Shown: positions 1,681 through 60,301 of the stretch, piece after piece
How positions within the stretch are numbered: position 1 is the stretch's first letter
Layout of the letters: every line of letters begins with the position of its first letter
From: Burkholderiales bacterium
GTDB lineage: Bacteria > Pseudomonadota > Gammaproteobacteria > Burkholderiales > SG8-41
Length of the DNA: 64,000 nt
Reading direction: 5' to 3'
NCBI GenBank assembly: GCA_022843705.1
Contig: JALHND010000001.1
Span: forward strand, 26,762-90,761
Program-made: the position numbers and the translations under genes
Notes under the pieces: model-generated
Told to the model about the DNA's origin: nothing
Databases searched by the model: none
Seen by the model: the letters and a program-made list of their open reading frames with translations, nothing else

Positions 1681-1849
1681 CTGCACTCCAAGTGCCTGGC
1701 AGCGCATGTCCGGCGCCACCGGCGAAAGATTACACCAGGCGCAACAGGCCTGTATCCCGCAAAAGTCCACACTCCATGCATGCAAATTGACTCGGTGAAG
1801 TCCATTCATCTACGCTCGACCGCTCACCATGTGACCGACGGGAAACACC

Positions 1850-3106
1850 ATGCCTGACACCGCCCCTTCTGCCGACAAACCGCTGTCCTCCGCCGACCGC
1901 ACCACTCCCCAGTTGACCAGCGCCACGGCGCCGCCGGCGCTGCGGCTGATGCTGGCCCTGGAAGATTTCGAGGCACCGGCACGGCGCTACATCCCGCGAC
2001 CGATCTACGGCTATGTCTCGGGCGGAGTGGAGCGCAATGTCACATTGAACTGGAACCGCTCGGCTTTTGACGACCTGGCGCTGCTGCCGCGGATGCTGGT
2101 CAATGTGTCACAGCGATCCCAGAAAACCGAGCTGTTCGGCCGCAGCTACGATTCACCTTTTGGCATCTCGCCGATGGGCGGCACCTCGCTCGCGGCTTTC
2201 GACGGCGACCTCGCGCTGGCGCGCGCCGCGGCGGCGCGCAATGTGCCGATGATCCTCAGCGGCGCCTCGCTGACCGCCCTCGAAAAAGTGCGCGAAACCT
2301 CGCCGCGGCATACCTGGTTCCAGGCCTATCTGCCGGGCGAGGAGCAGGCGATCACCGAACTCGTGGAACGCGTGGCAAAGGCGGGTTACGACACGCTGGT
2401 GCTGACCGTGGACATCCCCGTCGGCGCCAATCGCGAAAACAACGTGCGCAACGGCTACAACGCCCCGCTGCGGCCAAGCCTGCGGCTCGCATTGCAGTGC
2501 CTGGCACGTCCACGCTGGCTCATCGGCACGGCGCTGCGCACCTACTTCACCCACGGCATGCCGCATTTCGAGAACATGGGCAAACGCACGCCGCTGGTGT
2601 CGCGCACCGCGGTGCGCGAGCGCGCCAATCGCGACCACCTGAACTGGCAGCATTTCGCGCTGATGCGCCGGCTGTGGAAAGGCAAACTGGTGATCAAGGG
2701 CATCCTGGCGAAAGAAGACGCGGTGATCGCACGCGAGCAGGGCGCCGACGGCATCATCGTGTCCAATCACGGCGGCCGCCAGCTCGATTCAGCCAGCTCG
2801 CCGCTGCGCGTGCTGCCCGGCATCGTCGAGGCGGCGGGCGGCATGACGGTGATGATGGACAGCGGCATCCGCCGCGGCACCGACGTCCTGAAAGCACTGG
2901 CACTGGGGGCAAAGTTCGTTTTTGTCGGCCGGCCCATGCTCTACGCCGCCGCGGTCGCCGGCGAAACCGGCGTTCGCCATGCGATCCGGCTGCTGCACGA
3001 CGAAATCGACCGCGACATGGCCATGCTGGGTGCCAACACCATTGCCGAAATCAGCCGCGGCATGTTGATGGACACGCGCAGCCCCGACATTTACGGCCTG
3101 CGCTGA
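1850..3106 (+). CDS. FMN-dependent alpha-hydroxy acid dehydrogenase (L-lactate/glycolate/mandelate dehydrogenase family)
   Basis: 418-aa ORF with family hallmarks: LEDFEAPARRYIP..YGYVSGG, TVD.PV.G.RE, GADGIIVSNHGGRQLD, DSGIRRGTDVLKALALGA. Confidence 0.85.
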   Translation: MPDTAPSADKPLSSADRTTPQLTSATAPPALRLMLALEDFEAPARRYIPRPIYGYVSGGVERNVTLNWNRSAFDDLALLPRMLVNVSQRSQKTELFGRSYDSPFGISPMGGTSLAAFDGDLALARAAAARNVPMILSGASLTALEKVRETSPRHTWFQAYLPGEEQAITELVERVAKAGYDTLVLTVDIPVGANRENNVRNGYNAPLRPSLRLALQCLARPRWLIGTALRTYFTHGMPHFENMGKRTPLVSRTAVRERANRDHLNWQHFALMRRLWKGKLVIKGILAKEDAVIAREQGADGIIVSNHGGRQLDSASSPLRVLPGIVEAAGGMTVMMDSGIRRGTDVLKALALGAKFVFVGRPMLYAAAVAGETGVRHAIRLLHDEIDRDMAMLGANTIAEISRGMLMDTRSPDIYGLR

Positions 3107-3998: not shown

Positions 3999-4895
3999 TC
4001 AGACCGGCAGCGGGATACCTTCCTGTTCACAGCTGTTCGCGATGTCGCTGACGGTGACGCGGCGCATGTCACGCACCCAGCGCAGGTCGTCGAATTCGGT
4101 GCCGCGATGCATCGTGCAGCGGTTGTCCCACATCACCAGCTCATGCGGGCGCCAGCGATGGGTGTAGACGAACTGGCGCTGGGTGACATGGGCAATCAGC
4201 CCATCAATCAATGCGCGGCCTTCCGCATCCGGCATGCCCCAGATCCTTCCCGCATGCGAGGCCACGAACAGCGACTTGCGGCCGTTCTGCGGGATGGTCC
4301 GCACCAGCACCTGCGGCACCGGCGGCAGGCGTTTCTGCTCCTCTTCGGTGAACTCGTAAAAGCCGTTACGACGCCGCGAGGTCGCAATCCAGTGCTCGAC
4401 GACCAGTCCCTGCAGCCTCTGCTTCATCGCAGCCGGCAATGCGTCGTAGGCCGCGCGCTGGTCGGCAAATTCGGTGTGGCCGCCGACCGGCGCCACCGTT
4501 TCGGCATACAGCAGCGAGCAGATGCTGGGCAGGCGCTTGAACGAACTGTCGGTATGCCACAGCCGGTTGCCGGCCTTGTACATGCGCTGGCGGCTGGTTT
4601 CCCCCCAGATCCTGCCATCGGCCGACAGATTGGAGATGTCGGAAAACGCGCCGCCGAAACGCGAGGGCGTCGCCTTGGGATCGAGCGTGCGCTCGTTCTC
4701 GATCGGACCGAAGTGCGACGCGAAGGCCAGCTGCTGTTCCTGGTCCAGATGCTGCTGCGGAAACACCAGCACGGCGTATTTCCAGAACGCCTCCCTGATC
4801 GCCGCAAGATCGGCGGCGGACAGTGGTTTCGACAGGTCGACATCGCCGACCTCGGCGGCAAAGTCCGGCGTCACCGGACAGACGGTAATACCCAT
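3999..4895 (-). CDS. TauD/TfdA family Fe(II)/2-oxoglutarate-dependent dioxygenase
   Basis: ORF 3999..4946 trimmed to the ATG at 4895, preceded by GAAGGAGGAG. Contains WHTDSSF (HxD iron ligands) and a distal ...WDNRCTMHRG motif typical of TfdA/TauD. Confidence 0.85.
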   Translation of the reverse strand: MGITVCPVTPDFAAEVGDVDLSKPLSAADLAAIREAFWKYAVLVFPQQHLDQEQQLAFASHFGPIENERTLDPKATPSRFGGAFSDISNLSADGRIWGETSRQRMYKAGNRLWHTDSSFKRLPSICSLLYAETVAPVGGHTEFADQRAAYDALPAAMKQRLQGLVVEHWIATSRRRNGFYEFTEEEQKRLPPVPQVLVRTIPQNGRKSLFVASHAGRIWGMPDAEGRALIDGLIAHVTQRQFVYTHRWRPHELVMWDNRCTMHRGTEFDDLRWVRDMRRVTVSDIANSCEQEGIPLPV

Positions 4896-5042
4896 ATGTT
4901 CTCCTCCTTCTGCCTGCGGCTCGTCTCCGCGGCACACGGCCAACATACACGCATCGACACGCGCACGGCAGTGGTTTTCCGGATTATGGCGCCGGCCGGC
5001 GGCGTATCATGCCGATGAGTCCAGAGGATCGGGAGAAACGGC

Positions 5043-5339
5043 ATGGCAAAAGCTTATTGGGTGGTCAGTTACCGGGCCATACACGATGCGGAAGCCTTCA
5101 GGCGTTACGCCGCGGTGGCACCTGCCGCCATCCAGGCGCATGGCGGCCGCTTCCTGGTGCGCGGCATGGCGGCGAAAGTCCACGAGGCCGGCATCCTGCA
5201 GCGGGTGGTGGTCATCGAGTTCGACAACCTTGCGCAGGCCCTGTCGGCCCACGACACGCCGGCCTACCAGGCGGCGCTGAAGGAACTCGCCGGCGGTGCG
5301 GTGGAGCGCGATCTGCGCATCGTCGAGGGCCTGGCCTGA
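5043..5339 (+). CDS. DUF1330 domain protein
   Basis: 98-aa ORF MAKAYWVVSYRAIHDAEAFRRYA...GGRFLVRG...VVIEF, a pattern typical of DUF1330. Confidence 0.75.
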   Translation: MAKAYWVVSYRAIHDAEAFRRYAAVAPAAIQAHGGRFLVRGMAAKVHEAGILQRVVVIEFDNLAQALSAHDTPAYQAALKELAGGAVERDLRIVEGLA

Positions 5340-7249: not shown

Positions 7250-8263
7250 TCAGCCTGCGCGGCTGCGTCCGGCAAGCCTGCGCAGTTCGGCATGCATAAC
7301 ATCGGTAACGGCAATGCCGCCGGCCTGCGCCTGCGCAAGCGCGGCCTGCCGCCGTGTGCCGGGCAGGCGCACGCCATCATCGGCAAGCATGCCCGCAACC
7401 ATGTCCTCGATGCGCGAGTAATAAACCTCCGCACCCGCCAGCGCCTGCGGATCAATCGCAATCAGCGCATGGCCGATGCGCGGCTTGTTGCCGGGTTCGA
7501 AGTACGAATCGTTTTCCACGCTCAAGGCCGCGCCGGTCAGCGCGACGCACAGTGCCTCGACCATCAGCGCCAGCGCAGCACCCTTGACGCCGCCGATCGC
7601 GGTCAGGCTGCCGGTCAGCGCCGCCTGCGCGCTGGTCGTCGGATTGCCGTCGCGGTCGACCGCCCAGCCCGGCGGTATCGGTTTGCCTTCCTTCGCCATC
7701 AGCATGATCTTGCCGCGGGTCACTTCGGTCAGCGACAGGTCAACGACGATCGGCGCGGCGTCCCTGCGCGGAAAAATCGCGGCAATCGGATTGGTGCCGA
7801 AATACGCCCGCTTGCCGCCCCAGGCATTGATCGCCGCCGGCGAATTGGTCAGCGCAATGCCGGTCATGCCGGCCGCGGCGAGCGGCGCAAGGTGGTAGGC
7901 CGCGGCGCCGAAGTGATGACTGTTGGTGACGCCGGCAAAAGCGATGCCGTAACGCCGCGCGCGTTTGACCACTTCGGTCACCGCCAGCGCCGCCGCCGGA
8001 AACGCCAGTCCGCCGCCGGCATCGATCAGGCAGGTCGCCCCCTGCTTGCGCACAATCTTCGGTTTCGCCTTGCCGCTGGCGCGCCCCTCGCGCAGGTGCT
8101 GCGCGTAAAGCGCGACGCGGGACAGGCCGTGGCCGGAGAGGCCTTCGGCTTCGGCCACCACCAGCGCATCAGCCGTGGACTGTGCCATCGACTTCGACGC
8201 GCCGGCGCGTTTCAGCGCCCGCGTGACCAGGTCGGCGAGTTCGGCGGTCGTCAGTGTCGGCAT
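7250..8263 (-). CDS. Ldh2-family (malate/L-lactate/sulfolactate dehydrogenase type 2) oxidoreductase
   Basis: ORF 7250..8323 trimmed to the ATG at 8263 (MPTLTTAELADL...), 10 nt below the upstream gene stop. Family motifs: GHGLSRV, VTNSHHFGAAAYH, GTNPIA, GGVKG. Confidence 0.8.
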   Translation of the reverse strand: MPTLTTAELADLVTRALKRAGASKSMAQSTADALVVAEAEGLSGHGLSRVALYAQHLREGRASGKAKPKIVRKQGATCLIDAGGGLAFPAAALAVTEVVKRARRYGIAFAGVTNSHHFGAAAYHLAPLAAAGMTGIALTNSPAAINAWGGKRAYFGTNPIAAIFPRRDAAPIVVDLSLTEVTRGKIMLMAKEGKPIPPGWAVDRDGNPTTSAQAALTGSLTAIGGVKGAALALMVEALCVALTGAALSVENDSYFEPGNKPRIGHALIAIDPQALAGAEVYYSRIEDMVAGMLADDGVRLPGTRRQAALAQAQAGGIAVTDVMHAELRRLAGRSRAG

Positions 8264-8273
8264 CGCGGCACTC

Positions 8274-9260
8274 TCAGTCCACAGTGGTACCGGACTGTTT
8301 CGCAACTTCAGCCCACTTCGCAAGCTCCGAGCGGAAAAACGCGGAAAACTCGGCTGGCGTGTTGCCGCTGGGTTCGGCGCCCTCGGCCCGGATCCGCTTC
8401 ACCACCTCCGGCGACTTGACTGCCGCAACCCACTCCCGGTAGAGCTTGTCCTGCACCGGCTGCGGCGTCTTGACGGGCACCAGCAGGCCGTTCCATTGCA
8501 GCGCAAGGTGATCCTTGACGCCGGCCTCGATCATCGTCGGCACCTCGGGTGCCACCGCAGAACGCACCTTGTCGGCCACGCCGAGCCCGCGCAGGCGGTT
8601 GTTGCGGATGTGCGGCGCCGCCACCGGCATCACCACAAAAGCCACCTGCGATTCACCGGTCAGCAGCGCCACCGAAGCGGGTGCCGCGCCCTTGTACGGC
8701 AGGTGGGTGATGCGGGTGCCGGTTTTGACCCGCAGCATTTCCATCGCCATGTGCGACATCGTGCCGGTTCCCGCCGACGAATAATCGAGCGAGTTGGGCT
8801 TGGCCTTTGCCAGCACCACCAGGTCCTTGACGGTTTTCACCGGCAGTGCAGGGTGGGCCACCAGCGCGAAGGGATAGGAAGAAGCCATCGATATCGCGGC
8901 AAAGTCGTTGACGGGATCGTAGCTCAGCTTCTTGTAGATTGCGGGGCTGATCGAGATCGACGAATTGGCGAAAAACACCGTGTAGCCGTCGCCCGGTGCC
9001 TTGGCCACGATGTCGGCGGCAATGTTGCCGCTGGCGCCGGCCCGGTTGTCGACGATCACCTGCTGGCCGAGCTGCTGCGAGAATTTCTGCGCGATGATGC
9101 GCGCCACCAGGTCGCTGCCGCCGCCCGCGGGGAACGGCAGCACCATGCGGATCGCCCTCGCCGGAAACTCCTGTGCAGCCGCCGGCACCGCGCCCGCGGC
9201 AACCGCCATCACGGCACAGAAACCGTGCAACAGAATATTGAATCGGGCAGCCATGGCCAC
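8274..9260 (-). CDS. Bug/TctC-family tripartite tricarboxylate transporter substrate-binding protein
   Basis: 328 aa with a signal peptide, then FPARAIRMVLPFPAGGGSDLVARIIAQKFSQQLGQQVIVDNRAGASGNI, the canonical Bug/TctC N-terminal pattern. Confidence 0.85.
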   Translation of the reverse strand: MAMAARFNILLHGFCAVMAVAAGAVPAAAQEFPARAIRMVLPFPAGGGSDLVARIIAQKFSQQLGQQVIVDNRAGASGNIAADIVAKAPGDGYTVFFANSSISISPAIYKKLSYDPVNDFAAISMASSYPFALVAHPALPVKTVKDLVVLAKAKPNSLDYSSAGTGTMSHMAMEMLRVKTGTRITHLPYKGAAPASVALLTGESQVAFVVMPVAAPHIRNNRLRGLGVADKVRSAVAPEVPTMIEAGVKDHLALQWNGLLVPVKTPQPVQDKLYREWVAAVKSPEVVKRIRAEGAEPSGNTPAEFSAFFRSELAKWAEVAKQSGTTVD

Positions 9261-9357: not shown

Positions 9358-11073
9358 TCAGGCCGGTGTCAGCAGCGACTGCCCCGGTTTGACACGGGTG
9401 AAATGCACCGGCCGCGTTTCGCTGCTGAAACGCCCTTCACGCCAGCCGACACAGGTGTAGCGTGAGTTCTCGAGGTCGCGCACGTCGGGAAAGTCGGCGC
9501 GGAAATGCGAGCCGCGCGAGTCCTCGCGCGCCATCGCGGCAAACCGGATCGACTTCGACACCAGCACCAGGTTTTTCAGGTTCAGCCAGTCGTGCCAGGT
9601 CAGGTTGAAGGCCAGCGTTGAGCCGTCGACACCGGTCGCATCAAGCCGCGCATCAAGCTCGTTGAGCTGATCTTCGGCGCGAACCAGCGATGCAGCATCG
9701 CGGACGATACCGACGTCATCCCACATCACGTTGTAGAGTTCCTCGCGGATCGAGTTGATGTCGCCGCCCTTGCGTGTCAGCGGCGCACGGCAACGCGCCA
9801 CCGCGGCATCAATCGAGTCCTGGTCGGGGGCGCGGAATTCGCCGTGGGCCTTGACCCAGCCCGGCATCACGTCACCGGCAATGCCGCCGAACACCGTTGA
9901 ATTGGCCACGCCGTTGCCGCCGAGGCGGTTGGCGCCGTGCACCCCGCCGGAATCCTCGCCGGCGACGAACAGTCCCGGCAGATCAGTGCTGCAATCCGTT
10001 TTGAACACCACGCCGCCCATCATGTAGTGTGCGGTGGGCACCACGTCGACCAGGCCGCCGACCAGGTCAAAACCGCAGTCGGCGCAGCGTTCGACCATGC
10101 CCTTGAATTCCTTGCGCACCATCACCGGATCGAGGTGTTTCATCGTGATGTAGAGGCCGCCGTTCTTGTTGACACGTCCGGCGCGCATTTCCTCGTACAT
10201 GCCGCGGCTGACGATGTCGCGGGTGGCGCGCTCGTTGCGCGGGTCATAGTTGTGCATGAAGCGCTCGCCGGCGCCGTTCAGCAGGTAACCGCCGGCGCCG
10301 CGCAGGCCTTCCTCGATGATGGTGCCGGTGATGCGGGTGTCGGAACCGGCAATCAGGCCGGTCGGGTGAAACTGCACCATTTCCATGTCGCGCAGCATCA
10401 GGCCGCCGCGCAGCGCCATCGCCATGCCGTCGCAGCTCTTGTCGCCGCTGGGCGTGTGGAATTTGTACATCGTCGGTCCGCCGCCGGTGGCCAGCAGCAC
10501 CGCCTGTGCCTGCACGAACACGAATTCGCCGCTGCGCATGTCGATCATCAGCACGCCGGAGATCGCATCACCGGTCTTGTTGCGGATGAACTCCACGGCC
10601 CGGTGCTCTTCCAGCCGGTCGATGCCGCGCGCCCACACCTGTTCGGCGAGCCGGTTGATGATCTCGATGCCGGTGAGGTCGCCCTTGTGCACCGTGCGGT
10701 CGAAGGTCTGACCGGCAAATGCCTTCTGGTGGATGGTACCGTCGGGGTTGCGGTCGAAGAAGCAGCCGAGCTCGTTCTCGAGCTCGTGGATGCGCTCCAC
10801 CGCAGTCTCGACCAGCGTCCACGCCAGGTCCTGGTCGGGCAGCCATTTGCCGCCCTCGATGGTGTCCATGAAATGGCGCTCGACCGAATCGCCGGCGGCG
10901 AGCGCGACGTTGTAGCCGCCCTGCACCATGCGCGTGCAGCCGGTCTTGCCGAGCAGCCCCTTCACCGCGACGGTGATCTTCAGTTGCGGGTTGTGCTGGT
11001 GGGCGTGCAACGCGGCAAAAAGTCCGGCGCCGCCGGAGCCGAGAATCAGGATGTCGGTTTTGATGGTTTGCAT
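9358..11073 (-). CDS. FAD-binding succinate dehydrogenase/fumarate reductase flavoprotein-like subunit (non-covalent-FAD type)
   Basis: 571 aa. Dinucleotide fold DILILGSGGAGLFAAL, catalytic MVQFHPTG and EEGLRGAGGYLLN. The position of the SdhA/FrdA covalent-FAD His (RSHTVxAQGG) reads GCTRMVQGG. Confidence 0.85.
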   Translation of the reverse strand: MQTIKTDILILGSGGAGLFAALHAHQHNPQLKITVAVKGLLGKTGCTRMVQGGYNVALAAGDSVERHFMDTIEGGKWLPDQDLAWTLVETAVERIHELENELGCFFDRNPDGTIHQKAFAGQTFDRTVHKGDLTGIEIINRLAEQVWARGIDRLEEHRAVEFIRNKTGDAISGVLMIDMRSGEFVFVQAQAVLLATGGGPTMYKFHTPSGDKSCDGMAMALRGGLMLRDMEMVQFHPTGLIAGSDTRITGTIIEEGLRGAGGYLLNGAGERFMHNYDPRNERATRDIVSRGMYEEMRAGRVNKNGGLYITMKHLDPVMVRKEFKGMVERCADCGFDLVGGLVDVVPTAHYMMGGVVFKTDCSTDLPGLFVAGEDSGGVHGANRLGGNGVANSTVFGGIAGDVMPGWVKAHGEFRAPDQDSIDAAVARCRAPLTRKGGDINSIREELYNVMWDDVGIVRDAASLVRAEDQLNELDARLDATGVDGSTLAFNLTWHDWLNLKNLVLVSKSIRFAAMAREDSRGSHFRADFPDVRDLENSRYTCVGWREGRFSSETRPVHFTRVKPGQSLLTPA

Positions 11074-11187: not shown

Positions 11188-11799
11188 TCAGGATTTGACA
11201 CCCAGCGCCGCCAGTACGCCGGCACGCTGGTCCTTCGCCGCGGCGTTGACCGCGGTATAGAGGCTGCCGCCGTGGGAATCCATCGCCACCAGAAGCGGAC
11301 CGAAGCCGCTGATGCGGAACTTCCACAGCGATTCGGGATTGAGGTCGTCGAGGTCGACCTCCTCGATCTGCTCGATCCAGGTGGTTTCCAGCGCGGCAGT
11401 GCCGCCGATGATCGCAAGATAGACCCCGCCGAGATCGGCGAAGGCCTTCGCCGACGCGGCGAACAACCCGCCCTTGCCGATGATGATGCGCACGCCGTAC
11501 TGCTCCATCAGCGGCCGCGTGAAGCGTTCCATGCGAGCGCTGGTTGTGGTGCCGATGCAGATCGGCGCATACCCTGAAGGGTGCGCCTTGGTTTCGCCCA
11601 CCCACTTGACGTTGGGTGCGGTGTGGACGACGGCGTGGCCGCGCATGTCAAAACGCGTCTTGCGGCCGTGGTCGAACATGTGGATCTGGGTGGCGTCGCG
11701 GATGCCGTAGAGGGTCTGGTGCAGCGTGACAGTGTCGTTGATGCGCAGCTTGCGCACCTGCTCTTCACTGACCGGCATGTTGAGTTCGTAATGGGCCAT
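11188..11799 (-). CDS. Fe-S hydro-lyase beta subunit (class I fumarase C-terminal / L-tartrate dehydratase TtdB type)
   Basis: 203 aa: MAHYELNMPVSEEQVRKLRINDTVTLHQTLYGIRDATQ...RIIIGKGG. Matches the fumarate hydratase class I C-terminal domain family. Confidence 0.85.
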   Translation of the reverse strand: MAHYELNMPVSEEQVRKLRINDTVTLHQTLYGIRDATQIHMFDHGRKTRFDMRGHAVVHTAPNVKWVGETKAHPSGYAPICIGTTTSARMERFTRPLMEQYGVRIIIGKGGLFAASAKAFADLGGVYLAIIGGTAALETTWIEQIEEVDLDDLNPESLWKFRISGFGPLLVAMDSHGGSLYTAVNAAAKDQRAGVLAALGVKS

Positions 11800-11808
11800 G
11801 TCCGTATC

Positions 11809-12684
11809 CTAGTACCCGTACGAGAGGCCTTGCGGCGTGAAAGTTGCCCTTGCGCGCCGCGCCGAATGGCACTGCATGTTGACCGCGACGGGATTCATCG
11901 TAATGTGGGTGGCTGCGGTCTCGACATGCACCGCAAAGGCCGTGGAATCGCCGCCGAGGCCCTGGGCGCCGACACCGAGCTTGTTGACCACGGCGGAGAG
12001 TTCGGCCTCGAGTTTCGCACCCTCGGGGTCGGCGCAGACGCTGCCCAGCGGCCGCGTCGCCGCGACCTTCGACAGGTGCACGCAGAGATCGGCGGTGCCG
12101 CCGACGCCGACGCCGACGATCACCGGCGGGCAGCTCTTGCCGCCGGCCTCGAGCACGCAGTCGATGACGAAGGTCTTGATCGCATCCACGCCGTCGGCGG
12201 GAATCGCCATCTTCAGCCAGGAGTTGTTCTCCGAGCCCGAGCCCTTCGGGATCATCTCGATCGACAGCGTGTCGGCATCCGCGGTGAAATCAATGTTGAT
12301 CACCGGCACGTGGCGGCCGCCGGAGGTATGTTCGTTCTTGCGCGTCGTCGGGTGCACCACCGACGAACGCAGCGGGTGCTCCTTCGTCGCGCGGGTGCAG
12401 CCGCTGACGATCGCCTGTTTCAGCGCGTGGCCATCGATCTCGATGCCGGAACCGATGACGACGTTGTAGATGGGAATGCCGGTGTCCTGGCACAGCAGGT
12501 TGGTGTTGTCCTCGGCCACCTTGATGTTGCGGATCATCGTGCCGAGAATGGCTTTGCCGGTGGCGTTGGTTTCAGCACTGTCCAGCCGCTGGAAACCCTG
12601 CTTGATGTCCGGGGGAAGCATCTTGAGCGCGCGGATATAGAGCTCCTTGCACGCCTCTTCCACCTGTTTGAGATCGACTTTCAC
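11809..12684 (-). CDS. Fe-S hydro-lyase alpha subunit (class I fumarase N-terminal / L-tartrate dehydratase TtdA type)
   Basis: 291 aa with LCQDTGIPIYNV and GGKSCPPVIVGVGVGGTAD, typical of the TtdA/FumA N-terminal domain. Stop lies 9 nt before the beta subunit start. Confidence 0.85.
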   Translation of the reverse strand: MKVDLKQVEEACKELYIRALKMLPPDIKQGFQRLDSAETNATGKAILGTMIRNIKVAEDNTNLLCQDTGIPIYNVVIGSGIEIDGHALKQAIVSGCTRATKEHPLRSSVVHPTTRKNEHTSGGRHVPVINIDFTADADTLSIEMIPKGSGSENNSWLKMAIPADGVDAIKTFVIDCVLEAGGKSCPPVIVGVGVGGTADLCVHLSKVAATRPLGSVCADPEGAKLEAELSAVVNKLGVGAQGLGGDSTAFAVHVETAATHITMNPVAVNMQCHSARRARATFTPQGLSYGY

Positions 12685-12755
12685 GGTATTGCCCTGGAAT
12701 CGGATTGATGCGGATGGAAAAAGGCCCGCGGCATCATGCCACGGGCCGCGTTGCG

Positions 12756-13718
12756 TCAGTTCACCTGCAGCTTGCGCTCGTTGATGATCTTCACCCAGCG
12801 CGAGCCTTCTTCCTTGATCGCTTTGGCGAATTCTGCGGGGGTGTTGCCGACAGGAACCATGCCCAGATCCTCGAAGCGCTTGGAGATGACAGGATCACCC
12901 AGGGCAGCCACCGTGTCCTTGTGGATTTTCGCCACAACCGGCGCCGGCGTTCCCGTCGGGACCATAAAACCGAACCAGCCGAGGTTTTCGAATCCCGGCA
13001 GGGTTTCCGCCACCGCCGGCACATCCGGCAGCTGTTTCGAGCGCTCCTTGCTGGTCACGGCCAGCGCACGGAGTTTTCCGGACCGCACAAAGGCAATGGC
13101 GGCGGAAAGGTTGGGGGTTACAAACTGGATTTGTCCGCCAATCAGGTCGCTGACGGCCGGCGCCTCACCCTTGTACGGGATGTGCACCACGTCAATGCCG
13201 GCGCTGAATATGAAATTCTCCCCGGCAAGGTGGGTCTGGGTGCCGATTCCGGCCGATCCGAAGGTCACGCCCTTCGGTTTTGCCTTGGCCATGTTGATCA
13301 GGTCCCTGACGGTTTTCGCGGGAAAACTCGGATTGACGACAATAGCCTGGGGACCGCTGGCAACGTTGGTCACCGCCAGCAGATCCTTCTCCGCACTGTA
13401 GGGAAGTTTCCTGTACATGTGGGGATTGGCAGTGACGATCGAGCCCGAAGTCATGAATATCGTATAGCCGTCGGCGGGCGCCTTCGCCGCAAGTTCGGCG
13501 CCGATGTTGCCGCCCGCACCCGCGCGGTTATCGACCACGATGGTCTGGCCCCAGGTTTCGGTCAGTTTCTGTGCAACAACACGGGTCACGATGTCGGTCG
13601 CCCCCCCGGCCGAGAAGGGCACGATGATGCGGACCGGCTTGTTCGGGAAATCCTGGGCGACTGCCGTGGTTGATGCCAGCAGGGCCGCTGTCACGAGAAT
13701 CAGTCTTGTCTGTTTCAT
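12756..13718 (-). CDS. Bug/TctC-family tripartite tricarboxylate transporter substrate-binding protein
   Basis: ORF 12756..13892 trimmed to the ATG at 13718, preceded by GGAGGAGG. N-terminus MKQTRLILVTAALLASTTAVAQDFPNKPVRIIVPFSAGGATDIVTR... Confidence 0.85.
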   Translation of the reverse strand: MKQTRLILVTAALLASTTAVAQDFPNKPVRIIVPFSAGGATDIVTRVVAQKLTETWGQTIVVDNRAGAGGNIGAELAAKAPADGYTIFMTSGSIVTANPHMYRKLPYSAEKDLLAVTNVASGPQAIVVNPSFPAKTVRDLINMAKAKPKGVTFGSAGIGTQTHLAGENFIFSAGIDVVHIPYKGEAPAVSDLIGGQIQFVTPNLSAAIAFVRSGKLRALAVTSKERSKQLPDVPAVAETLPGFENLGWFGFMVPTGTPAPVVAKIHKDTVAALGDPVISKRFEDLGMVPVGNTPAEFAKAIKEEGSRWVKIINERKLQVN

Positions 13719-13815: not shown

Positions 13816-15222
13816 TCAAAGGCCCAGCGCATCCGCAGCCAGCCTGCGCAATTCACGATGCATCTTGTCGCGCAGCGCCCTCGCCGAAGCACGATGGGCG
13901 ATGTTGACCATTTCGTAAGGATCCTTCTCCAGGTCGTAGAGCTCGTCCAGCTCGCCGTTGCGCGCGCGGTTGACCCAGTGGATGTACTTGTAGCGCTCGG
14001 TGCGCACCGCCTTGTAGGTCATGTTCACCAGCCAGGGATAGGCGTTCTCGGCCCAGTACTCGACCAGCAGCGACTTGCGCCAGCCGGCCGCCCTGCCGCC
14101 ACGCAACAGCGGCAGCAGCGAGCGTCCCTGGATGTGGCCGGCGGGTTTGCCGCCGGCGATCTCGATCAGCGTCGGCGCGAGGTCCTGCAGGATCGCCAGC
14201 TGTTTCACCCGCGATCCGGCCCGGATCTTTCCCGGCCAGCGGATGGTCAGCGGCGAACGGATGCCCTCTTCGTAGGCAAAGCGCCGTTCCGGCCCGATGC
14301 CGTGCTCGCCGAAGAAGTAACCGTTGTCGCCGAGGAACAGGATCACCGTGTTGTCGAGCTCTCCGGTTTCTTCCAGCGCCTGGAATATCATGCCGACGCC
14401 CTCGTCGACCGCGGCCATCATCGCCGCGCGCAGGCGGATTTCCTCCTGCTTGCCGGAGTGGATGGCGTCGTGCATCACCTTCGATGCCGGCGTCTTGCGC
14501 AGGGCGACGGCCTCCGCCCAGGCCGGCTTGTGCTTGAGAAATTCGGACGGCTTCTGCATGTTCGGCTTTTTCGGGAACACGCAGCCTTTGTAGAGATTCT
14601 GGTGGCGTTTCGCCGGACGGTAACCGTCCATCTTGAAGCTGCCATCGGCCGCCTGCTCCGCATCCGGATGCACCGCCTTGTGCGCAAACCACAGCGACCA
14701 GGGTTTCTTGTTCCTTTTGCGCCCCTGGCCGCGGATCCAGTCGACCGCCATCGTGTTCATGATGTCGGTGACATAACCCTTGTGCTGGACGTACTTGCCG
14801 TTTTCGTTGAGCTTCGGATCGTAGAGATTGCCGTGGCCGTCATAGGCCACCCAGAAATCGTAGCCGGGCCGCGGCTTGCCGTCGTTGCCCATGTGCCACT
14901 TGCCGATGTGCGCGGTCTCGTAACCGAGGCGCTGCAGTTCGAGGTGGTAGTTCGGCAGGCGGTGGCTGGCCAGGTCGCGCGCGACGTTGTCGATGATGCC
15001 GTGGCGGCTCGCGTACTGGCCGGTCAGGATCGAGGCGCGGTTGGGCGAGCAGATCGGCGTGGTGTGGAAGGCGCGCTCGAACAGCGCGCCCTCGTGCGCG
15101 ATACGGTCGATGTGCGGCGTCTTCATGTACGGATGGCCGCCGGCACCGAACTCGTCGAAACGCAGATCATCGACCAGGATCAGCAGCAGGTTAGGCTTGT
15201 TCCGATTCTGTTTCTTGCGCAT
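13816..15222 (-). CDS. Cys-type sulfatase (arylsulfatase family) lacking a signal peptide
   Basis: ORF 13816..15624 trimmed to the ATG at 15222 (MRKKQNRNKPNLLLILVDDLRFDE). Formylglycine motif CSPNRASILTG is present. Only about 9 residues precede the conserved PNLLLILVDD core. Confidence 0.85.
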   Translation of the reverse strand: MRKKQNRNKPNLLLILVDDLRFDEFGAGGHPYMKTPHIDRIAHEGALFERAFHTTPICSPNRASILTGQYASRHGIIDNVARDLASHRLPNYHLELQRLGYETAHIGKWHMGNDGKPRPGYDFWVAYDGHGNLYDPKLNENGKYVQHKGYVTDIMNTMAVDWIRGQGRKRNKKPWSLWFAHKAVHPDAEQAADGSFKMDGYRPAKRHQNLYKGCVFPKKPNMQKPSEFLKHKPAWAEAVALRKTPASKVMHDAIHSGKQEEIRLRAAMMAAVDEGVGMIFQALEETGELDNTVILFLGDNGYFFGEHGIGPERRFAYEEGIRSPLTIRWPGKIRAGSRVKQLAILQDLAPTLIEIAGGKPAGHIQGRSLLPLLRGGRAAGWRKSLLVEYWAENAYPWLVNMTYKAVRTERYKYIHWVNRARNGELDELYDLEKDPYEMVNIAHRASARALRDKMHRELRRLAADALGL

Positions 15223-15245
15223 CTCCACTCCCCCTTTGCAGCAAC

Positions 15246-15593
15246 TCAGACCAGGTTCAGCAGGAAGGCCAGTCCCGCAACCAGCGAAACCCCGGCGGCA
15301 ATGGCGAGCAGCGTTTTCTGCCACTCGCGCCATTCCAGGAATTCCAGCGCCAGCAGGCGCAGGCCGCCGGCCATGTGCGCGGCGAGCAGCAGCACCAGGC
15401 CGGTTTCGGCGAATTTGACCAGCGGCTGCTCGGTCCAGCGCAGGAAACCGTCGAGTGCCGCGGCGCCCTGCAGGGCCTGGCCCAGCGCCCAGAAATGCAG
15501 CGGCAGGAACAGCGCGAGCAGCACGCCGGAGAGGCGGTGGACGATGAAGGCCCAGTAGGCCGGGTGGTTGCGCGAGCGGAAATCGTTCTTCAT
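15246..15593 (-). CDS. succinate dehydrogenase/fumarate reductase membrane anchor, SdhC-like (3 TM)
   Basis: 115 aa MKNDFRSRNHPAYWAFIVHRLSGVLLALFLPLHFW... with an HRxSG motif and three hydrophobic helices. ATGA overlap with the upstream gene. Confidence 0.65.
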   Translation of the reverse strand: MKNDFRSRNHPAYWAFIVHRLSGVLLALFLPLHFWALGQALQGAAALDGFLRWTEQPLVKFAETGLVLLLAAHMAGGLRLLALEFLEWREWQKTLLAIAAGVSLVAGLAFLLNLV

Positions 15594-15937
15594 GCGCCGC
15601 CTCCGAACACCGCGAACACTGCACGCATCCCCCACATCGCGAGGCTCAGGCCGATGATGCCGGTCAGCACATCGAGTCCGCGGCCGCGCCAGTTGCACAT
15701 CTCGCCGATGATCGTGCGCAGGCCGATCGGCGCATGCACCGCGACCGCGGCGACGAACAGCGTGTAGAACGCGAACCAGGCGACGCTGCCCTGGGTGCGG
15801 CCGAGGATCTCGGCGGCGGAAAGGCCGCTGCGCACGGCGTAGATCATGGTCACCAGGTGCACGACAACACAAAGCGCCAGCACCATCGCGCTGATCCGCT
15901 GGGCGCCCCACAGCAGGACTTCGCTGCGCCGGCTCAT
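15590..15937 (-). CDS. succinate dehydrogenase/fumarate reductase membrane anchor, SdhD-like (3 TM)
   Basis: 115 aa with three hydrophobic segments carrying His residues (VVVHLV, AVAVHAP). GAAGGAAG lies upstream of the ATG. Context is between the FrdB-like and SdhC-like genes. Confidence 0.6.
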   Translation of the reverse strand: MSRRSEVLLWGAQRISAMVLALCVVVHLVTMIYAVRSGLSAAEILGRTQGSVAWFAFYTLFVAAVAVHAPIGLRTIIGEMCNWRGRGLDVLTGIIGLSLAMWGMRAVFAVFGGGA

Positions 15938-15991: not shown

Positions 15992-16705
15992 TTATATTTC
16001 GCCCGAAAGCGTTGCGGCGAGCACTGCGCGCTTCAGGCCGGCGATGCCTGCCGTCGGCGACAGGCCCTTCGGGCAACGCTCGGTACAGTTGAGATGGGTG
16101 TGACAGGCATGGCAACCGGCATCACCGGCCACCGCCGCCAGGCGCTCCGCGCGCGCGGTGTCGCGCACGTCGTTGACCAGCGTCCACGCGCGATTGAGCG
16201 CTGCGGGGCCGAGATAGTCCTTGTTCCAAGTCACCACATCGCAGGCGCTGTAACAAACGCCGCAGCCGATGCATTCGATGCCGGCATCGACGCGTTTGCG
16301 TTCCTTCGACTCCGGCGACACGCGCTCGAATTCGTCCTTTCGCGTCTTGCTGCCGGTGAAGCGGCCGCGCGCGCGCGCCCACTTGTCAAAGAATTCGCGC
16401 ATGTCGGTGACCAGATCCTTGACCACCGGCAGGTTGCGCAGCGGTGCGATCTCGAGCCGGTTGTCGGCAGCGACCTTCGATACATGGGTGCGGCAGGTCC
16501 AGCGCGATTGGCCGTTGACCGTCATCGCGCAGGAGCCGCAAACGCCGACGCGGCAGGCAAAGCGGTAGGCCAGCGTCGGGTCACATTTGCGCTGCACGTA
16601 AGTCACGACATCGAGCACCGTCTGGCTTTCCTGCCGCGGGACTTCGAACTCCTGGAAGCCGCCCTCTTCGGCTCCGCGCCAGATCCTGACCTTGAGGTTT
16701 TCCAT
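15992..16705 (-). CDS. succinate dehydrogenase/fumarate reductase iron-sulfur subunit-like protein
   Basis: ORF trimmed to the ATG at 16705 (MENLKVRIWRG...). Cluster motifs: CRVGVCGSCAMTVNG..C (2Fe-2S), CIGCGVCYSAC, and CHACHTHLNCTERCP. Confidence 0.85.
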   Translation of the reverse strand: MENLKVRIWRGAEEGGFQEFEVPRQESQTVLDVVTYVQRKCDPTLAYRFACRVGVCGSCAMTVNGQSRWTCRTHVSKVAADNRLEIAPLRNLPVVKDLVTDMREFFDKWARARGRFTGSKTRKDEFERVSPESKERKRVDAGIECIGCGVCYSACDVVTWNKDYLGPAALNRAWTLVNDVRDTARAERLAAVAGDAGCHACHTHLNCTERCPKGLSPTAGIAGLKRAVLAATLSGEI

Positions 16706-16715
16706 GAGCGTGCTC

Positions 16716-18368
16716 CTAATGCGCGGCGCCGGCCGCACCGGCAGTCACTGTCGGCGCCGGCAAACGCTGGATCATCACGTTGATGCAGGCCGGTTTGCCG
16801 CTCGCCAGCGCGCGCTGCAGCGCAGGTTGAAGATCGGCGGCGCGCGTCACCAGTTCGCCATGTCCGCCCAGCGCGGCCACCGCGAGATCATAACGCGTGC
16901 CTTCGCGCAGTTCGCAGCCGTGCGCGCGTTCCTTGCCGTAGCTGCGCAGCTGGATCTGGTGTTCGGCGTTCCAGCAGGAATCATTGCCGACAACCACAAT
17001 CATCGGCACACCGTCGCGCACCGCGGTGTCGAACTCCATCAGATGAAAGCCGAAGGCGCCGTCACCCATCACCGCGATCACCGGGGCCTGCGGCCGCGCC
17101 ATGCGCGCGGCAAAGGCAAAGGGCACACCGCTGCCGATCGAACCACCGGTGCCGTTGATCACGCGCGCCGGCGCGCTGATGCAGGCCTGGGCCCACTGGC
17201 CGATTTCGCCGCCGTCGGCAACAAAAACAGCATCGGGCGAAGCATCAAGCACGGCCTGTACCGCATGGCCGAGTTCGACCGGGTGCACCGGGCCGTTGCC
17301 GCTGTCGATGGCACGCCAGGCTTCGGGACGGAATGCCACGGCATCGGTAACCTGTTTCATCCAGCCCTGTGCCGGATGGCGCTGCGCTGCGGCGGCCAAC
17401 GCCTGCACCGTGGCCGCAGTGTCGGCCTGCGCCGAAAATGCGACGCGGGCGGCACCCAGGTTCTTCACCGAGCGCTGCAGGACTTCGGTTTCGGGATCGA
17501 TCACCGCAAAGCGGCAATCCGCCGCCAGCGCCGGCGCCTTGCCGAAACGCAGCGTGAAATCGGGTTGCTTGCCCAGCAGCACCACCAGATCGGCCTGCGC
17601 CAGCAGGCCGGCAAATGCGCCCATCGAAGGATCGTTGACGCCGCGCGGGCTCTCCATGCACAGCACCGGCACGCCGGCCGCGCCGGCCAGCTTCCCGGCG
17701 AATCCGGCAAACGGGACTTGCGACATGGACGGCCCGAGCAGGATCAGCGGGCGGGCGGCTTCCCTGAGCAGTGCCAGCAGGGTCTGCACCGCGGCCTGCG
17801 GCAGCGGGTTCGCCGGCGCCGCGAAATCGGCGGCTGCGGCCAGATGTTTTTCACCGTCGGCGACCTTCGCCTCCAGCACGTCAAAAGGCAGGCTCAGGTG
17901 CACCGGACCCGGCCGCCCGGAACGGGCGATGCGGCAGGCACGCGCAATGTCGGCACCCAGCGTTTCAGCGCTGCCCGCGGTCCACGACGCCTTGACCACC
18001 GGCGCCGCCATGTCGGCCTGGCGCATTTCCTGGAAGGAACCGCGTCCGAGTTCGTTGAGGGGAGCGTGGCCCGAGAGCAGAACCAGCGGCGACTCCGAGG
18101 CCAGCGCGGTGTACAGCGCACCGATGCCGTTGGCATGGCCGGGGCCGCCGGTCAGCATCGCAATCCCCGGCTCTCCGGTGAGCCTCGCCCAGGCATCGGC
18201 CATGTGCACGGCCGCGCCTTCGTAACGCACGTGGGTGATCGCCAGCTTCGCCTCGATCGCCGCATCGTAGACCGGCATGATGTGGTTGCCGGAGAGCGAA
18301 AAAATCCGTTTCAGCCCGGCCTGCGCCAGTGAGCGCGCAAGAATGTCGGCGCCGCGGAGTGTCGTCAT
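16716..18368 (-). CDS. thiamine pyrophosphate-dependent enzyme (acetolactate synthase / oxalyl-CoA decarboxylase / sulfoacetaldehyde acetyltransferase superfamily)
   Basis: 550 aa. N-terminal Pyr domain with catalytic Glu (HVRYEGAAVHMADAWARLTG). C-terminal TPP motif GDGAFGFHLMEFDTAVRDGVPMIVVVGND. Confidence 0.85.
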   Translation of the reverse strand: MTTLRGADILARSLAQAGLKRIFSLSGNHIMPVYDAAIEAKLAITHVRYEGAAVHMADAWARLTGEPGIAMLTGGPGHANGIGALYTALASESPLVLLSGHAPLNELGRGSFQEMRQADMAAPVVKASWTAGSAETLGADIARACRIARSGRPGPVHLSLPFDVLEAKVADGEKHLAAAADFAAPANPLPQAAVQTLLALLREAARPLILLGPSMSQVPFAGFAGKLAGAAGVPVLCMESPRGVNDPSMGAFAGLLAQADLVVLLGKQPDFTLRFGKAPALAADCRFAVIDPETEVLQRSVKNLGAARVAFSAQADTAATVQALAAAAQRHPAQGWMKQVTDAVAFRPEAWRAIDSGNGPVHPVELGHAVQAVLDASPDAVFVADGGEIGQWAQACISAPARVINGTGGSIGSGVPFAFAARMARPQAPVIAVMGDGAFGFHLMEFDTAVRDGVPMIVVVGNDSCWNAEHQIQLRSYGKERAHGCELREGTRYDLAVAALGGHGELVTRAADLQPALQRALASGKPACINVMIQRLPAPTVTAGAAGAAH

Positions 18369-59811: not shown

Positions 59812-60301
59812 AGGTGAAGCTGGCCGGTAAGCCGGGTTCTGTCGTGGACAGCCATTCCTCTGGGCCGGACATCGCTGGCCGGCTCAAGCCACCTACCCGC
59901 AAGCTCGGCGGGACGCGTCATCGCTTGCCTATGCGGTGTTGCTCCGGGTGGAGGTTACCGTGCCATTCGCGTTACCGCGAACGCGGTGCGCTCTTACCGC
60001 ACCTTTTCACCCTTGCCTGATCCGCCGCAATCCGCTTGCACGAACTGCGCGGGCGCTTGCGCGCCCCTTACGGGGCGCCCGCACACCCCCTTCCCATTCA
60101 AGGGAGACTTTGCGGCGCTCGCGCGCCGCAAAGCCGGGCGGCCATCGGCGGTTCGTTCTCTGTGGCCCTGTTCCTCGCCTCGCGGCGGACGGGTGTTACC
60201 CGTCACCCTACCCTGTGGAGCCCGGACTTTCCTCTATGCGCGGCACGGACAAGTTGCCCCATCCGGTTTGCTCCGCGCACAGCGGCTGCCTGGCCAGCTT
60301 C
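59812..60301 (-). ncRNA. rnpB: RNase P RNA, bacterial type A, with expanded P12
   Basis: The reverse complement begins GAAGCUGGCCAGG... and ends ...CCGGCCAGCUUCACCU (P1 pairing). It contains the universal GAGGAAAGUCCGGGCUCCA, ACAGAGAACGAACCGCCGAUGGCC, GGUGCGGUAAGAGCGCACCGCG, CUCCACCCGGAGCAA and UGUCCACGACAGAACCCGGCUUA, matching E. coli M1 RNA as I recall it. Ends are accurate to a few nt. Confidence 0.9.

Follow-up and report, generated by a model that had tools for sequence, protein, structure and literature searches.

A predicted cytoplasmic Cys-type sulfatase-family hydrolase at a conserved slot of an undescribed, seemingly sulfolactate-type operon in uncultured Burkholderiales

We analyzed a 64,000-nucleotide stretch of DNA from a Burkholderiales bacterium (assembly GCA_022843705.1, contig JALHND010000001.1; the whole stretch is hereafter the window) that carries a sulfatase-family gene at positions 13816..15222. 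Among the closest described enzymes, the S1_11 carbohydrate 6-O-sulfatases belong to polysaccharide-utilisation loci, are exported, and have sulfated glycans as substrates. Choline-O-sulfatase BetC (S1_12) is a leaderless Cys-type enzyme that hydrolyses an imported small sulfate ester, the product of which is oxidised by co-encoded dehydrogenases. Phosphonate monoester hydrolases (PMH) and PehA (S1_0), cytosolic members of the same superfamily that also use formylglycine, hydrolyse esters other than sulfate esters. The PMH/PehA scaffold is thus not confined to sulfate esters (PMC5066984), and betC often adjoins a binding-protein gene (PMC6189696). In line with the rule that Cys-type sulfatases are cytosolic (PMC3920027), P. 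aeruginosa AtsA is likewise a cytosolic Cys-type enzyme, matured without a linked maturase gene.

The sulfatase of the window has a sulfatase domain and an SGSH_C-type C-terminal domain in common with the S1_11 enzymes BT4656 of B. thetaiotaomicron (5g2v) and a mucin-desulfating sulfatase (7p24), as well as the C/S-x-P-x-R and G-K-W-H motifs and the D-N/Q metal ligands. It differs from them in being leaderless, in having Arg313 where they have Lys, and in its surroundings, which comprise acid-metabolising and sulfonate-type genes but no glycoside hydrolase. BetC is the closest analogue in logic (import, cytoplasmic hydrolysis, and oxidation by co-encoded enzymes), but the present protein is no ortholog of it (162.9 bits against a cut-off of 433 for choline sulfatase TIGR03417), its apparent transporter is of the tripartite tricarboxylate (TTT) rather than the ATP-binding cassette (ABC) type, and the downstream chemistry is different. 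Whereas AtsA is a sulfate-starvation scavenger, this gene lies in a GntR-regulated catabolic cluster and scores 194.4 bits against 481 with the arylsulfatase model PRK13759. Unlike PehA (NF045661, 147.7 bits against 900), the protein keeps the sulfatase-type Lys/His pair.

Two described pathways also bear comparison. In a subset of loci the sulfatase takes the place right after ComA that would be expected of the 2-phosphosulfolactate phosphatase ComB (PMC9457059), but the two proteins are unrelated in sequence, most loci have no ComA, and the importers and sulfo-lyase-type genes look catabolic. The sulfolactate clusters of Chromohalobacter salexigens and Roseovarius nubinhibens (SlcHFG, ComC, SuyAB; PMC5812351) resemble the present one in their TTT binding protein, Ldh_2/ComC dehydrogenase, and two-subunit SuyAB. 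Going by that review, they are not known to have a sulfatase, an SdhABCD-like complex, or a class I fumarase-like hydratase, and the cluster here is in turn without tctAB-type membrane genes. The additions that lack a described counterpart are the slot held by the sulfatase or by a DUF3604 protein, the SdhABCD-like complex, and the fumarase-like hydratase. In the literature on sulfatases linked to TTT transporters, sulfolactate, sulfoacrylate, or phosphosulfolactate synthase, we found no description of the cluster.

We think it fairly probable that the gene encodes a formylglycine hydrolase of the cytoplasm, that its substrate is an imported anionic ester brought in by way of the adjacent TctC protein, and that the operon cannot do without this step. 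A cytosolic Cys-type sulfatase with an unlinked maturase would by itself be ordinary. The main interest lies in the conserved, undescribed, and very widespread operon and in the exchange of the sulfatase for DUF3604, a rare clean displacement that offers a testable handle on both proteins. The gene and its immediate upstream neighbors are arranged as follows.

15590..15937, minus strand: SdhC-like membrane anchor, 115 amino acids (PF01127, 1.8e-07)
15246..15593, minus strand: SdhD-like membrane anchor, 115 amino acids (PF01127 called in identical contigs)
15228..15234, minus strand: Shine-Dalgarno-like GGGGGAG, 5 nucleotides ahead of the sulfatase ATG, read from the sequence
13816..15222, minus strand: predicted leaderless Cys-type S1 (formylglycine) sulfatase-family hydrolase, 468 amino acids (PF00884 and PF16347)
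15037..15051, minus strand: codons of the C58-S-P-N-R62 formylglycine motif, with ASILTG next, from the translation

The first-pass annotation of this DNA, made from the letters alone, had described a Cys-type sulfatase with its core about 10 residues past the ATG, and our results agree; the minus strand, which it had left unstated, can now be added. PF00884 matched residues 10-357 over model positions 1-300 of 301 (1.4e-47, 162.9 bits against a cut-off of 25), SGSH_C PF16347 matched at 3.3e-33, and the PNLLLILVDD segment begins at residue 10. The maturation signature C/S-x-P-x-R plus xxxLTG is present as C58-S-P-N-R-A-S-I-L-T-G, and its CSPNR portion (residues 58-62) is invariant in 120/120 closest homologs. 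Positions D18, D19, K108 and H110 (G-K108-W-H110), H185, D299, and N300 are invariant among 36 aligned family members, and all except D19 and N300 also in an alignment with paralogs; from the alignment and ARSA numbering, we take these to be the metal and sulfate ligands. The only sequence-level S1 feature that departs from expectation is the ARSA K302 position, occupied by Arg313, which is invariant within the family. Because the exported relatives P0362, P0365, and P0371 share this Arg, we read it as clade variation and not as loss of function.

The protein fell below every curated NCBIfam equivalog cut-off, including that of the Mn arylsulfatase model NF052527 (117.8 bits against 850), and it is no ortholog of any characterised sulfatase. 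Among solved structures, 5g2v (GlcNAc-6-sulfatase, 1e-66) and 7p24 (mucin sulfatase, 8e-62) come closest. The name N-acetylglucosamine-6-sulfatase, which JGI gives to many homologs, is automatic and lacks support: the best solved relative matches at only 1e-66 in two aligned stretches, and neither the window nor the related loci covered by Pfam tables contain a glycoside hydrolase or glycan-utilisation gene. With 36 close homologs as input, AlphaFold2 gave a poor model (mean predicted local distance difference test score of 55.9), which was set aside, the fold being clear from the sequence. Taken at the level of motifs and domains, the product is a genuine formylglycine-dependent (S1, Cys-type) member of the sulfatase family. 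An identical protein is encoded on nine metagenome contigs, several from activated-carbon metagenomes, and a 96%-identical copy lies in a Burkholderiales metagenome-assembled genome (MAG).

The N-terminus (MRKKQNRNK) is basic, and the first β-strand, with the metal-binding Asp pair, starts at residue 10. Signal-peptide calls rested on inspection of N-terminal sequences and on the length of uncharged runs. By this measure, the longest uncharged run within the first 35 residues is 6 amino acids in the sulfatase, against 16 in the TctC protein at 12756..13718 and 17 in the second neighboring TctC protein. The 120 closest cluster representatives (75-98% identity) are 452-474 residues long, have just a short basic stretch of a few residues ahead of the first β-strand, and are all leaderless. 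We therefore predict a cytoplasmic enzyme without a Sec, Tat, or lipoprotein signal, and the same for the whole family.

The remaining way to an exported protein would be an upstream start, either that of a 602-residue form or another with an unconventional export signal, which would make the enzyme periplasmic. A GTG-initiated frame of this length does exist (13816..15624); in the window the frame stays open for 150 codons upstream, and it encodes an Arg-Arg followed by an Ala-rich stretch (PLRRAARAVPAAAFLGAG). The extension overlaps, in another frame, the conserved SdhD-like and SdhC-like genes, both of which are called independently with PF01127 matches in identical and related contigs. Most orthologous loci have an in-frame stop no more than 30 codons ahead of the core (the distance is 13 codons in L010, at 96% identity, 10 in L009, 8 in L018, and 4 in L065), so no export signal could be added there, and in L009 a ComA gene fills the space of the putative extension. 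The short start has a good ribosome-binding site, and its ATG (15222-15220) comes 23 nucleotides past the TGA (15248-15246) of the SdhD-like gene. Given the overlaps, the ortholog stops, and the ComA gene, the 602-residue version is an accident of a GC-rich frame, and an exported long form is practically excluded. The absence of a signal peptide, the overlap of the upstream frame with the SdhC-like gene, and the point that a mapped start adding an export signal would overturn this picture had been put forward in the first-pass annotation, and the ortholog frames bear out the lack of such a signal.

How unusual a leaderless member is depends on the comparison. The annotation had called a cytoplasmic sulfatase uncommon, which does not hold in general, as a review places Cys-type sulfatases of bacteria typically in the cytosol and those of the Ser type in the periplasm (PMC3920027), but does hold within this protein's own clade. 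In an exhaustive HMMER search over 1.84 billion cluster representatives, the whole leaderless family collapsed to one representative, P0361 (65% identity). The next-best 109 representatives with an alignment starting in the N-terminal core (35-54% identity) include 99 with at least 13 extra N-terminal residues (median 25), and 13 of the 15 relatives that we inspected have clear Sec, Tat, or lipoprotein signals while being of the Cys type. On the strength of these extensions and signals, the family is a cytoplasmic, leaderless offshoot of an otherwise exported sulfatase clade. Leaderlessness is thus moderately unusual.

Conversion of Cys58 to formylglycine would require a maturase encoded elsewhere, either an FGE or a Cys-type system of the kind in E. 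coli. Pfam scans of all sizeable open reading frames found no FGE (PF03781) and no radical-SAM/SPASM protein in the 64-kb window, as the annotation had stated, and none appeared in the Pfam-annotated neighborhoods of about 10 related loci. A crude scan for an FGE-like motif, GN[VILM]xEW, had no match in 2.18 Mb covering the window and 176 related loci, a weak negative. The rest of the window is housekeeping (ffh, rpsP-rimM-trmD-rplS, coaE, zapD, argJ, secA, lpxC, and a complete dcw cluster). Unlinked maturation has precedents, and the missing neighbor is therefore no peculiarity, contrary to the weight first put on it. The FGE genes of the Shinella acesulfame system are encoded apart from its sulfatase, on the chromosome and a different plasmid, and that sulfatase is active when made in E. 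coli (PMC11500405); E. coli modifies Cys-type sulfatases by unidentified machinery (PMC6189696). By analogy with these cases, an unlinked maturase seems ordinary.

The sulfatase is one member of a long run of minus-strand genes. From a promoter-like site at 20087-20058, the order is SuyA-like, SuyB-like, thiamine-diphosphate enzyme, SdhB-, SdhC-, and SdhD-like, sulfatase, and TctC; after a hairpin at 12747-12723, it continues with fumarase-like alpha and beta, SdhA-like, a second TctC, and Ldh_2. The members other than those given above are listed here.

20137..20895, plus strand: divergent GntR/UTRA regulator, upstream of the operon (PF00392 and PF07702)
19708..19989, minus strand: SuyA-like small subunit, 93 amino acids, matching the N-terminal part of the galactarate dehydratase model
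18489..19658, minus strand: SuyB-like UxaA-family subunit, 389 amino acids (PF04295 and PF20629)
16716..18368, minus strand: thiamine-diphosphate enzyme, 550 amino acids, a variable cluster accessory (TPP_enzyme N, M, and C domains)
15992..16705, minus strand: SdhB-like iron-sulfur subunit (PF13085 and Fer4; TIGR00384, 201.9 bits against a cut-off of 88)
12756..13718, minus strand: TctC-family periplasmic binding protein with a signal peptide (PF03401, 5.8e-77)
12723..12747, minus strand: terminator-like hairpin right after the TctC stop, 11-bp stem with 9 G-C pairs and a T-run, a consensus match only
11809..12684, minus strand: class I (Fe-S) fumarase-like alpha, 291 amino acids (PF05681, 4.8e-86; NF004885, 298.5 bits against a cut-off of 276)
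11188..11799, minus strand: class I fumarase-like beta (PF05683, 1.2e-28)
9358..11073, minus strand: SdhA/FrdA-like flavoprotein (PF00890 and PF02910)
8274..9254, minus strand: second TctC-family binding protein, with an obvious signal peptide (PF03401, 1.2e-67)
7250..8263, minus strand: Ldh_2-family 2-hydroxyacid dehydrogenase, ComC-like (PF02615, 4.4e-95)

These neighbors include two membrane anchors and two periplasmic binding proteins, so the earlier description of a gene embedded among cytoplasmic enzymes needs correction. Several of the families have sulfonate-handling members, and the operon seems to be of the sulfolactate type. The combination of a two-subunit UxaA-type lyase, an Ldh_2 protein, and TctC, which marks sulfolactate clusters, is present at the family level only. 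The SuyB-like protein is 88-95% conserved and is named "(2R)-sulfolactate sulfo-lyase subunit beta" by JGI. The best NCBIfam match of the Ldh_2 protein is L-sulfolactate dehydrogenase (201.5 bits, under the cut-off of 500). The thiamine-diphosphate enzyme lies below every NCBIfam equivalog cut-off, including that of Xsc, and is missing from many orthologous clusters. An Rfam scan detected neither a riboswitch nor any other RNA close to the operon.

The SdhA-like flavoprotein is predicted to be no normal succinate dehydrogenase. An alignment places Cys (GCTRMVQGG) at the position of E. coli FrdA His44, the residue that links flavin adenine dinucleotide (FAD), and Glu (IIEEGLRG) at that of the active-site residue Thr244. 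Both substitutions are present in 25/25 orthologs examined, which suggests non-covalently bound FAD and a substrate other than succinate or fumarate.

This context is conserved across a large, uncultured group. Near-identical homologs of the sulfatase number in the thousands in metagenomes of soil, groundwater, freshwater, and wastewater, and all stem from uncultured Burkholderiales or their relatives. In a scan of one genome per GTDB species, the best 80 loci all came from MAGs, mostly of Burkholderiales, with no cultured host among these 80 best species-level matches. SDH-like and fumarase-like genes accompany the sulfatase in at least 28 of the 84 sulfatase loci counted, a lower bound with many contigs being short, and chiefly in those with closer orthologs (median sulfatase identity 77% inside the cluster versus 69% outside). 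The link persists through rearrangement in L046, L060, and L072. The most constant neighbor of all is TctC, present in 61/84 loci and within 400 bp of the sulfatase in 51/84. The first-pass proposal of a cytoplasmic hydrolase of an imported small molecule is consistent with the leaderless homologs in its first half, and TctC makes import plausible.

Sampling of clusters through the fumarase-like gene, chosen regardless of any hydrolase, gave seven clusters, and in all seven the slot between SdhD-like and TctC is filled, by the sulfatase in five and by DUF3604 in two. From this hydrolase-blind sample, the hydrolase appears to be a part of the pathway and not a passenger. The same exchange is seen in clusters with a ComA-family gene (PF02679, the phosphosulfolactate synthase family): L091 and L100 have the order SdhD-TauE-ComA-sulfatase-TctC-ABC-ABC-FumA, and L109, L121, L111, L106, and L120 have SdhD-TauE-ComA-DUF3604-TctC-ABC-ABC-FumA. 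The sulfatase and the unrelated DUF3604 are interchangeable at the same slot, a clean non-orthologous displacement.

These observations bear on whether the enzyme could instead be a general sulfur scavenger for aryl and alkyl sulfate esters, lying in a sulfur island and outside the surrounding pathway. Cytosolic arylsulfatases such as P. aeruginosa AtsA do scavenge sulfur, more distant family members stand alone or beside TctC without the cluster, and a TauD-family dioxygenase, typical of sulfur-scavenging loci, is encoded nearby (3999-5006). However, the gene sits between the subunit genes of one complex (SdhBCD and SdhA), after a gap of 23 nucleotides; its slot was filled in every cluster sampled without reference to the sulfatase; and a non-homologous hydrolase substitutes at exactly that position. 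The regulator, moreover, is a GntR/UTRA protein, where a sulfur-starvation locus more typically has one of the CysB/Cbl type (LysR family). We consider a scavenging role outside the pathway quite unlikely and favor a hydrolase that belongs to the operon.

A second alternative arises from ComA. The enzyme could be a phosphatase, a non-homologous analogue of ComB that converts (2R)-phospho-3-sulfolactate, made by ComA from phosphoenolpyruvate (PEP) and sulfite, to sulfolactate. The superfamily includes formylglycine enzymes with activity on phosphate esters (PMH and PehA), and the sulfatase matches the NCBIfam model of PehA weakly. PMH-type enzymes, however, replace the G-K-x-H pair, which is kept here as in sulfatases. 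A ComA-like gene lies directly upstream of the sulfatase in seven loci (L008, L009, L022, L023, L025, L030, and L031), and the canonical pathway requires a phosphatase after ComA (PMC9457059). In a metagenome scan anchored on ComA, the partner was a sulfatase-family hydrolase in 14 loci (median distance 39 bp) and a DUF3604 protein of about 750 residues in 22. Yet ComA is adjacent in merely 9/84 sulfatase loci, and orthologs with and without it are interleaved in identity. The Lys-to-Arg change at the ARSA K302 position, considered as a sign of phosphate specificity, was rejected as such; exported relatives have the same Arg. ComA, a phosphatase, and SuyAB would together make a futile cycle from PEP to pyruvate, and every ComA module includes an importer, a sign that a compound from outside the cell is catabolised. 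A role as ComB analogue is, on this evidence, unlikely.

The hydrolase-binding protein pairing extends beyond the operon. ComA is regularly accompanied by a hydrolase and a binding protein, the latter being TctC, an SsuA-like ABC protein, or a putative tripartite ATP-independent periplasmic (TRAP)-type pair. The ComA-like protein itself scores 150.5 bits against an NCBIfam equivalog cut-off of 280. DUF3604 occupies the slot in L109 (9027-11270, plus strand), L121, L111, L106, and L120, and also in L172 (3014-5257); in unrelated settings (L125/L126, L134-L137, L149, L150, and L152/L161) it likewise accompanies ComA and a binding-protein gene. A small module recurs in L118, L125, L126, L150, and L134-L139: a regulator, a ComA-like gene, DUF3604, and a binding protein of the SsuA-like ABC type or a putative TRAP-type pair. 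It looks like a dedicated utilisation system, an odd setting for the ComA family, which is known only as a biosynthetic sulfite-adding synthase. DUF3604 shows a weak similarity to the CehA/McbA metallohydrolase domain (3.6e-08, below cut-off); searches gave no solved relative by sequence and no PHP or other Pfam domain even at E = 10, and a literature search returned a single, irrelevant paper. In variant clusters with ComA and TauE, such as L091 (10321-12965) and L109 (11338-13978), TctC is immediately followed by a taurine/sulfonate-type ABC ATPase and permease without a cognate ABC binding-protein gene.

A scheme for the chemistry can be drawn from the families. The SDH-like complex would convert 3-sulfopropanoate to sulfoacrylate, the fumarase-like hydratase would convert sulfoacrylate to sulfolactate, and the SuyAB-like lyase would release pyruvate and sulfite; Ldh_2 would handle sulfopyruvate, and the same intermediates could equally well run in the reverse, reductive direction. 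Sulfolactate, sulfoacrylate, and 3-sulfopropanoate are the compounds to which the rest of the operon points. Of these, sulfoacrylate is well known as a metabolite (PMC9457059), uptake of sulfolactate by a TTT system has been described (SlcHFG; PMC5812351), and a 3-sulfopropanoate route via sulfoacrylate and sulfolactate is known from a thesis only, with no genes published (PMC11489063). Variant clusters also carry ComA PF02679, TauE PF01925 (the sulfite exporter family), and taurine-type ABC genes.

Within such a scheme, the adjacent TctC binding protein would hand a small anionic ester to a tripartite tricarboxylate transporter, and the sulfatase would hydrolyse it in the cytoplasm. A sulfate ester is the likeliest substrate, most probably the monoester of a C3/C4 acid, since the protein keeps both the Lys/His pair typical of sulfatases and the Ca-type D-N ligands; phosphosulfolactate is a less likely candidate. 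The conserved catabolic operon, shared by uncultured Burkholderiales and seemingly built on sulfolactate-type chemistry, would require this hydrolysis, in partnership with a SuyAB-like sulfo-lyase, a ComC-like Ldh_2 protein, a non-canonical SdhABCD-like quinone oxidoreductase, and a class-I-fumarase-like hydratase. The annotation had seen a chemical conflict between a sulfate-ester hydrolase and a purely sulfonate reading of the locus. The tension is real, but it does not count against the sulfonate reading; the hydrolase fills an obligatory, conserved slot of a sulfonate-type operon.

That conflict would dissolve if the enzyme cleaved a C-S bond hydrolytically, acting on a β-keto sulfonate such as sulfopyruvate made by Ldh_2, with an enolate as leaving group and sulfate rather than sulfite released. 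The alkaline-phosphatase superfamily does include a C-P hydrolase, PhnA (phosphonoacetate hydrolase), with a stabilised carbanion as leaving group, and every neighbor's family has sulfonate-handling members. Such a reaction is unprecedented in the S1 family, however, desulfonation is already supplied by the SuyAB-like genes, and TauE in the variant clusters implies a sulfite product. We regard C-S hydrolysis as very improbable and retain ester hydrolysis.

A bolder proposal, possible if doubtful, is that the sulfatase and DUF3604 are interchangeable catalysts of one undescribed reaction. It would hydrolyse a C3 sulfonate that carries an ester group, such as 2-O-phospho- or 2-O-sulfo-3-sulfolactate, would be coupled to a ComA-family enzyme and a dedicated importer, and would feed interconversion of 3-sulfopropanoate, sulfoacrylate, and sulfolactate by the SdhABCD-like and fumarase-like enzymes. 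If so, the cluster would supply the unpublished genes of 3-sulfopropanoate degradation and a new role for the sulfatase fold. Solving the substrate would give functions to two large uncharacterised families and would probably show that ester sulfur and carbon-bonded sulfur are connected in the environmental sulfur cycle in a way not recognised so far.

Four points weigh against a dedicated ester hydrolase of this operon. The nearest solved relatives of the sulfatase are exported carbohydrate sulfatases. Homologs at 64-72% identity lie mostly outside the cluster, alone beside TctC or in a conserved neighborhood near aroC, so the family is not restricted to this pathway. The strong terminator-like hairpin past TctC stands inside the apparent single operon, which may therefore be two transcription units. 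Finally, we know of no sulfate ester that feeds a sulfolactate, sulfoacrylate, or 3-sulfopropanoate pathway. The hairpin itself (12723-12747) could be a partial terminator or an mRNA-stabilising element.

Further observations concern other sulfatases and the surroundings of the cluster. L008 (25-1509, minus strand, and 7606-9063, plus strand), L092, and L094 hold two more leaderless Cys-type sulfatases that are choline-sulfatase-like (TIGR03417, 297-321 bits, below cut-off). They cluster with ComA, the sulfatase described here, TctC genes, and RraA-like, enolase-superfamily, and Amidohydro_2 proteins, forming a second and distinct context rich in cytoplasmic sulfatases. A few kilobases beyond the cluster, past RecQ, the window encodes an LldD-like flavin mononucleotide-dependent L-2-hydroxyacid dehydrogenase (1835-3106, plus strand), the TauD-family dioxygenase (minus strand), and a DUF1330 protein (about 5019-5339, plus strand). 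These genes are syntenic in the close relatives L007, L009, and L174-L176 and could belong to the same sulfur-metabolism region.

On the other side, between the GntR regulator and rplS, lies a 563-residue open reading frame (20905-22596, minus strand) without a Pfam or NCBIfam match. Genes of 551-619 residues, also without Pfam matches, occupy the same position in several related loci such as L002 (2663-4318), L009 (1573-3342), L173, and L174, and the L013 ortholog begins with a signal-peptide-like N-terminus. One otherwise identical metagenome contig, L001, has the fumarase-like alpha gene split into frames of 145 and 133 amino acids (12539-13380) and lacks 34 bp there relative to L002, probably through an assembly or strain-level frameshift; in the window the 291-residue gene is intact. 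The sole Rfam match in the window, far from the operon, is a full-length class A RNase P RNA (59812-60301, minus strand, 276 bits) that adjoins the mraZ end of the dcw cluster.

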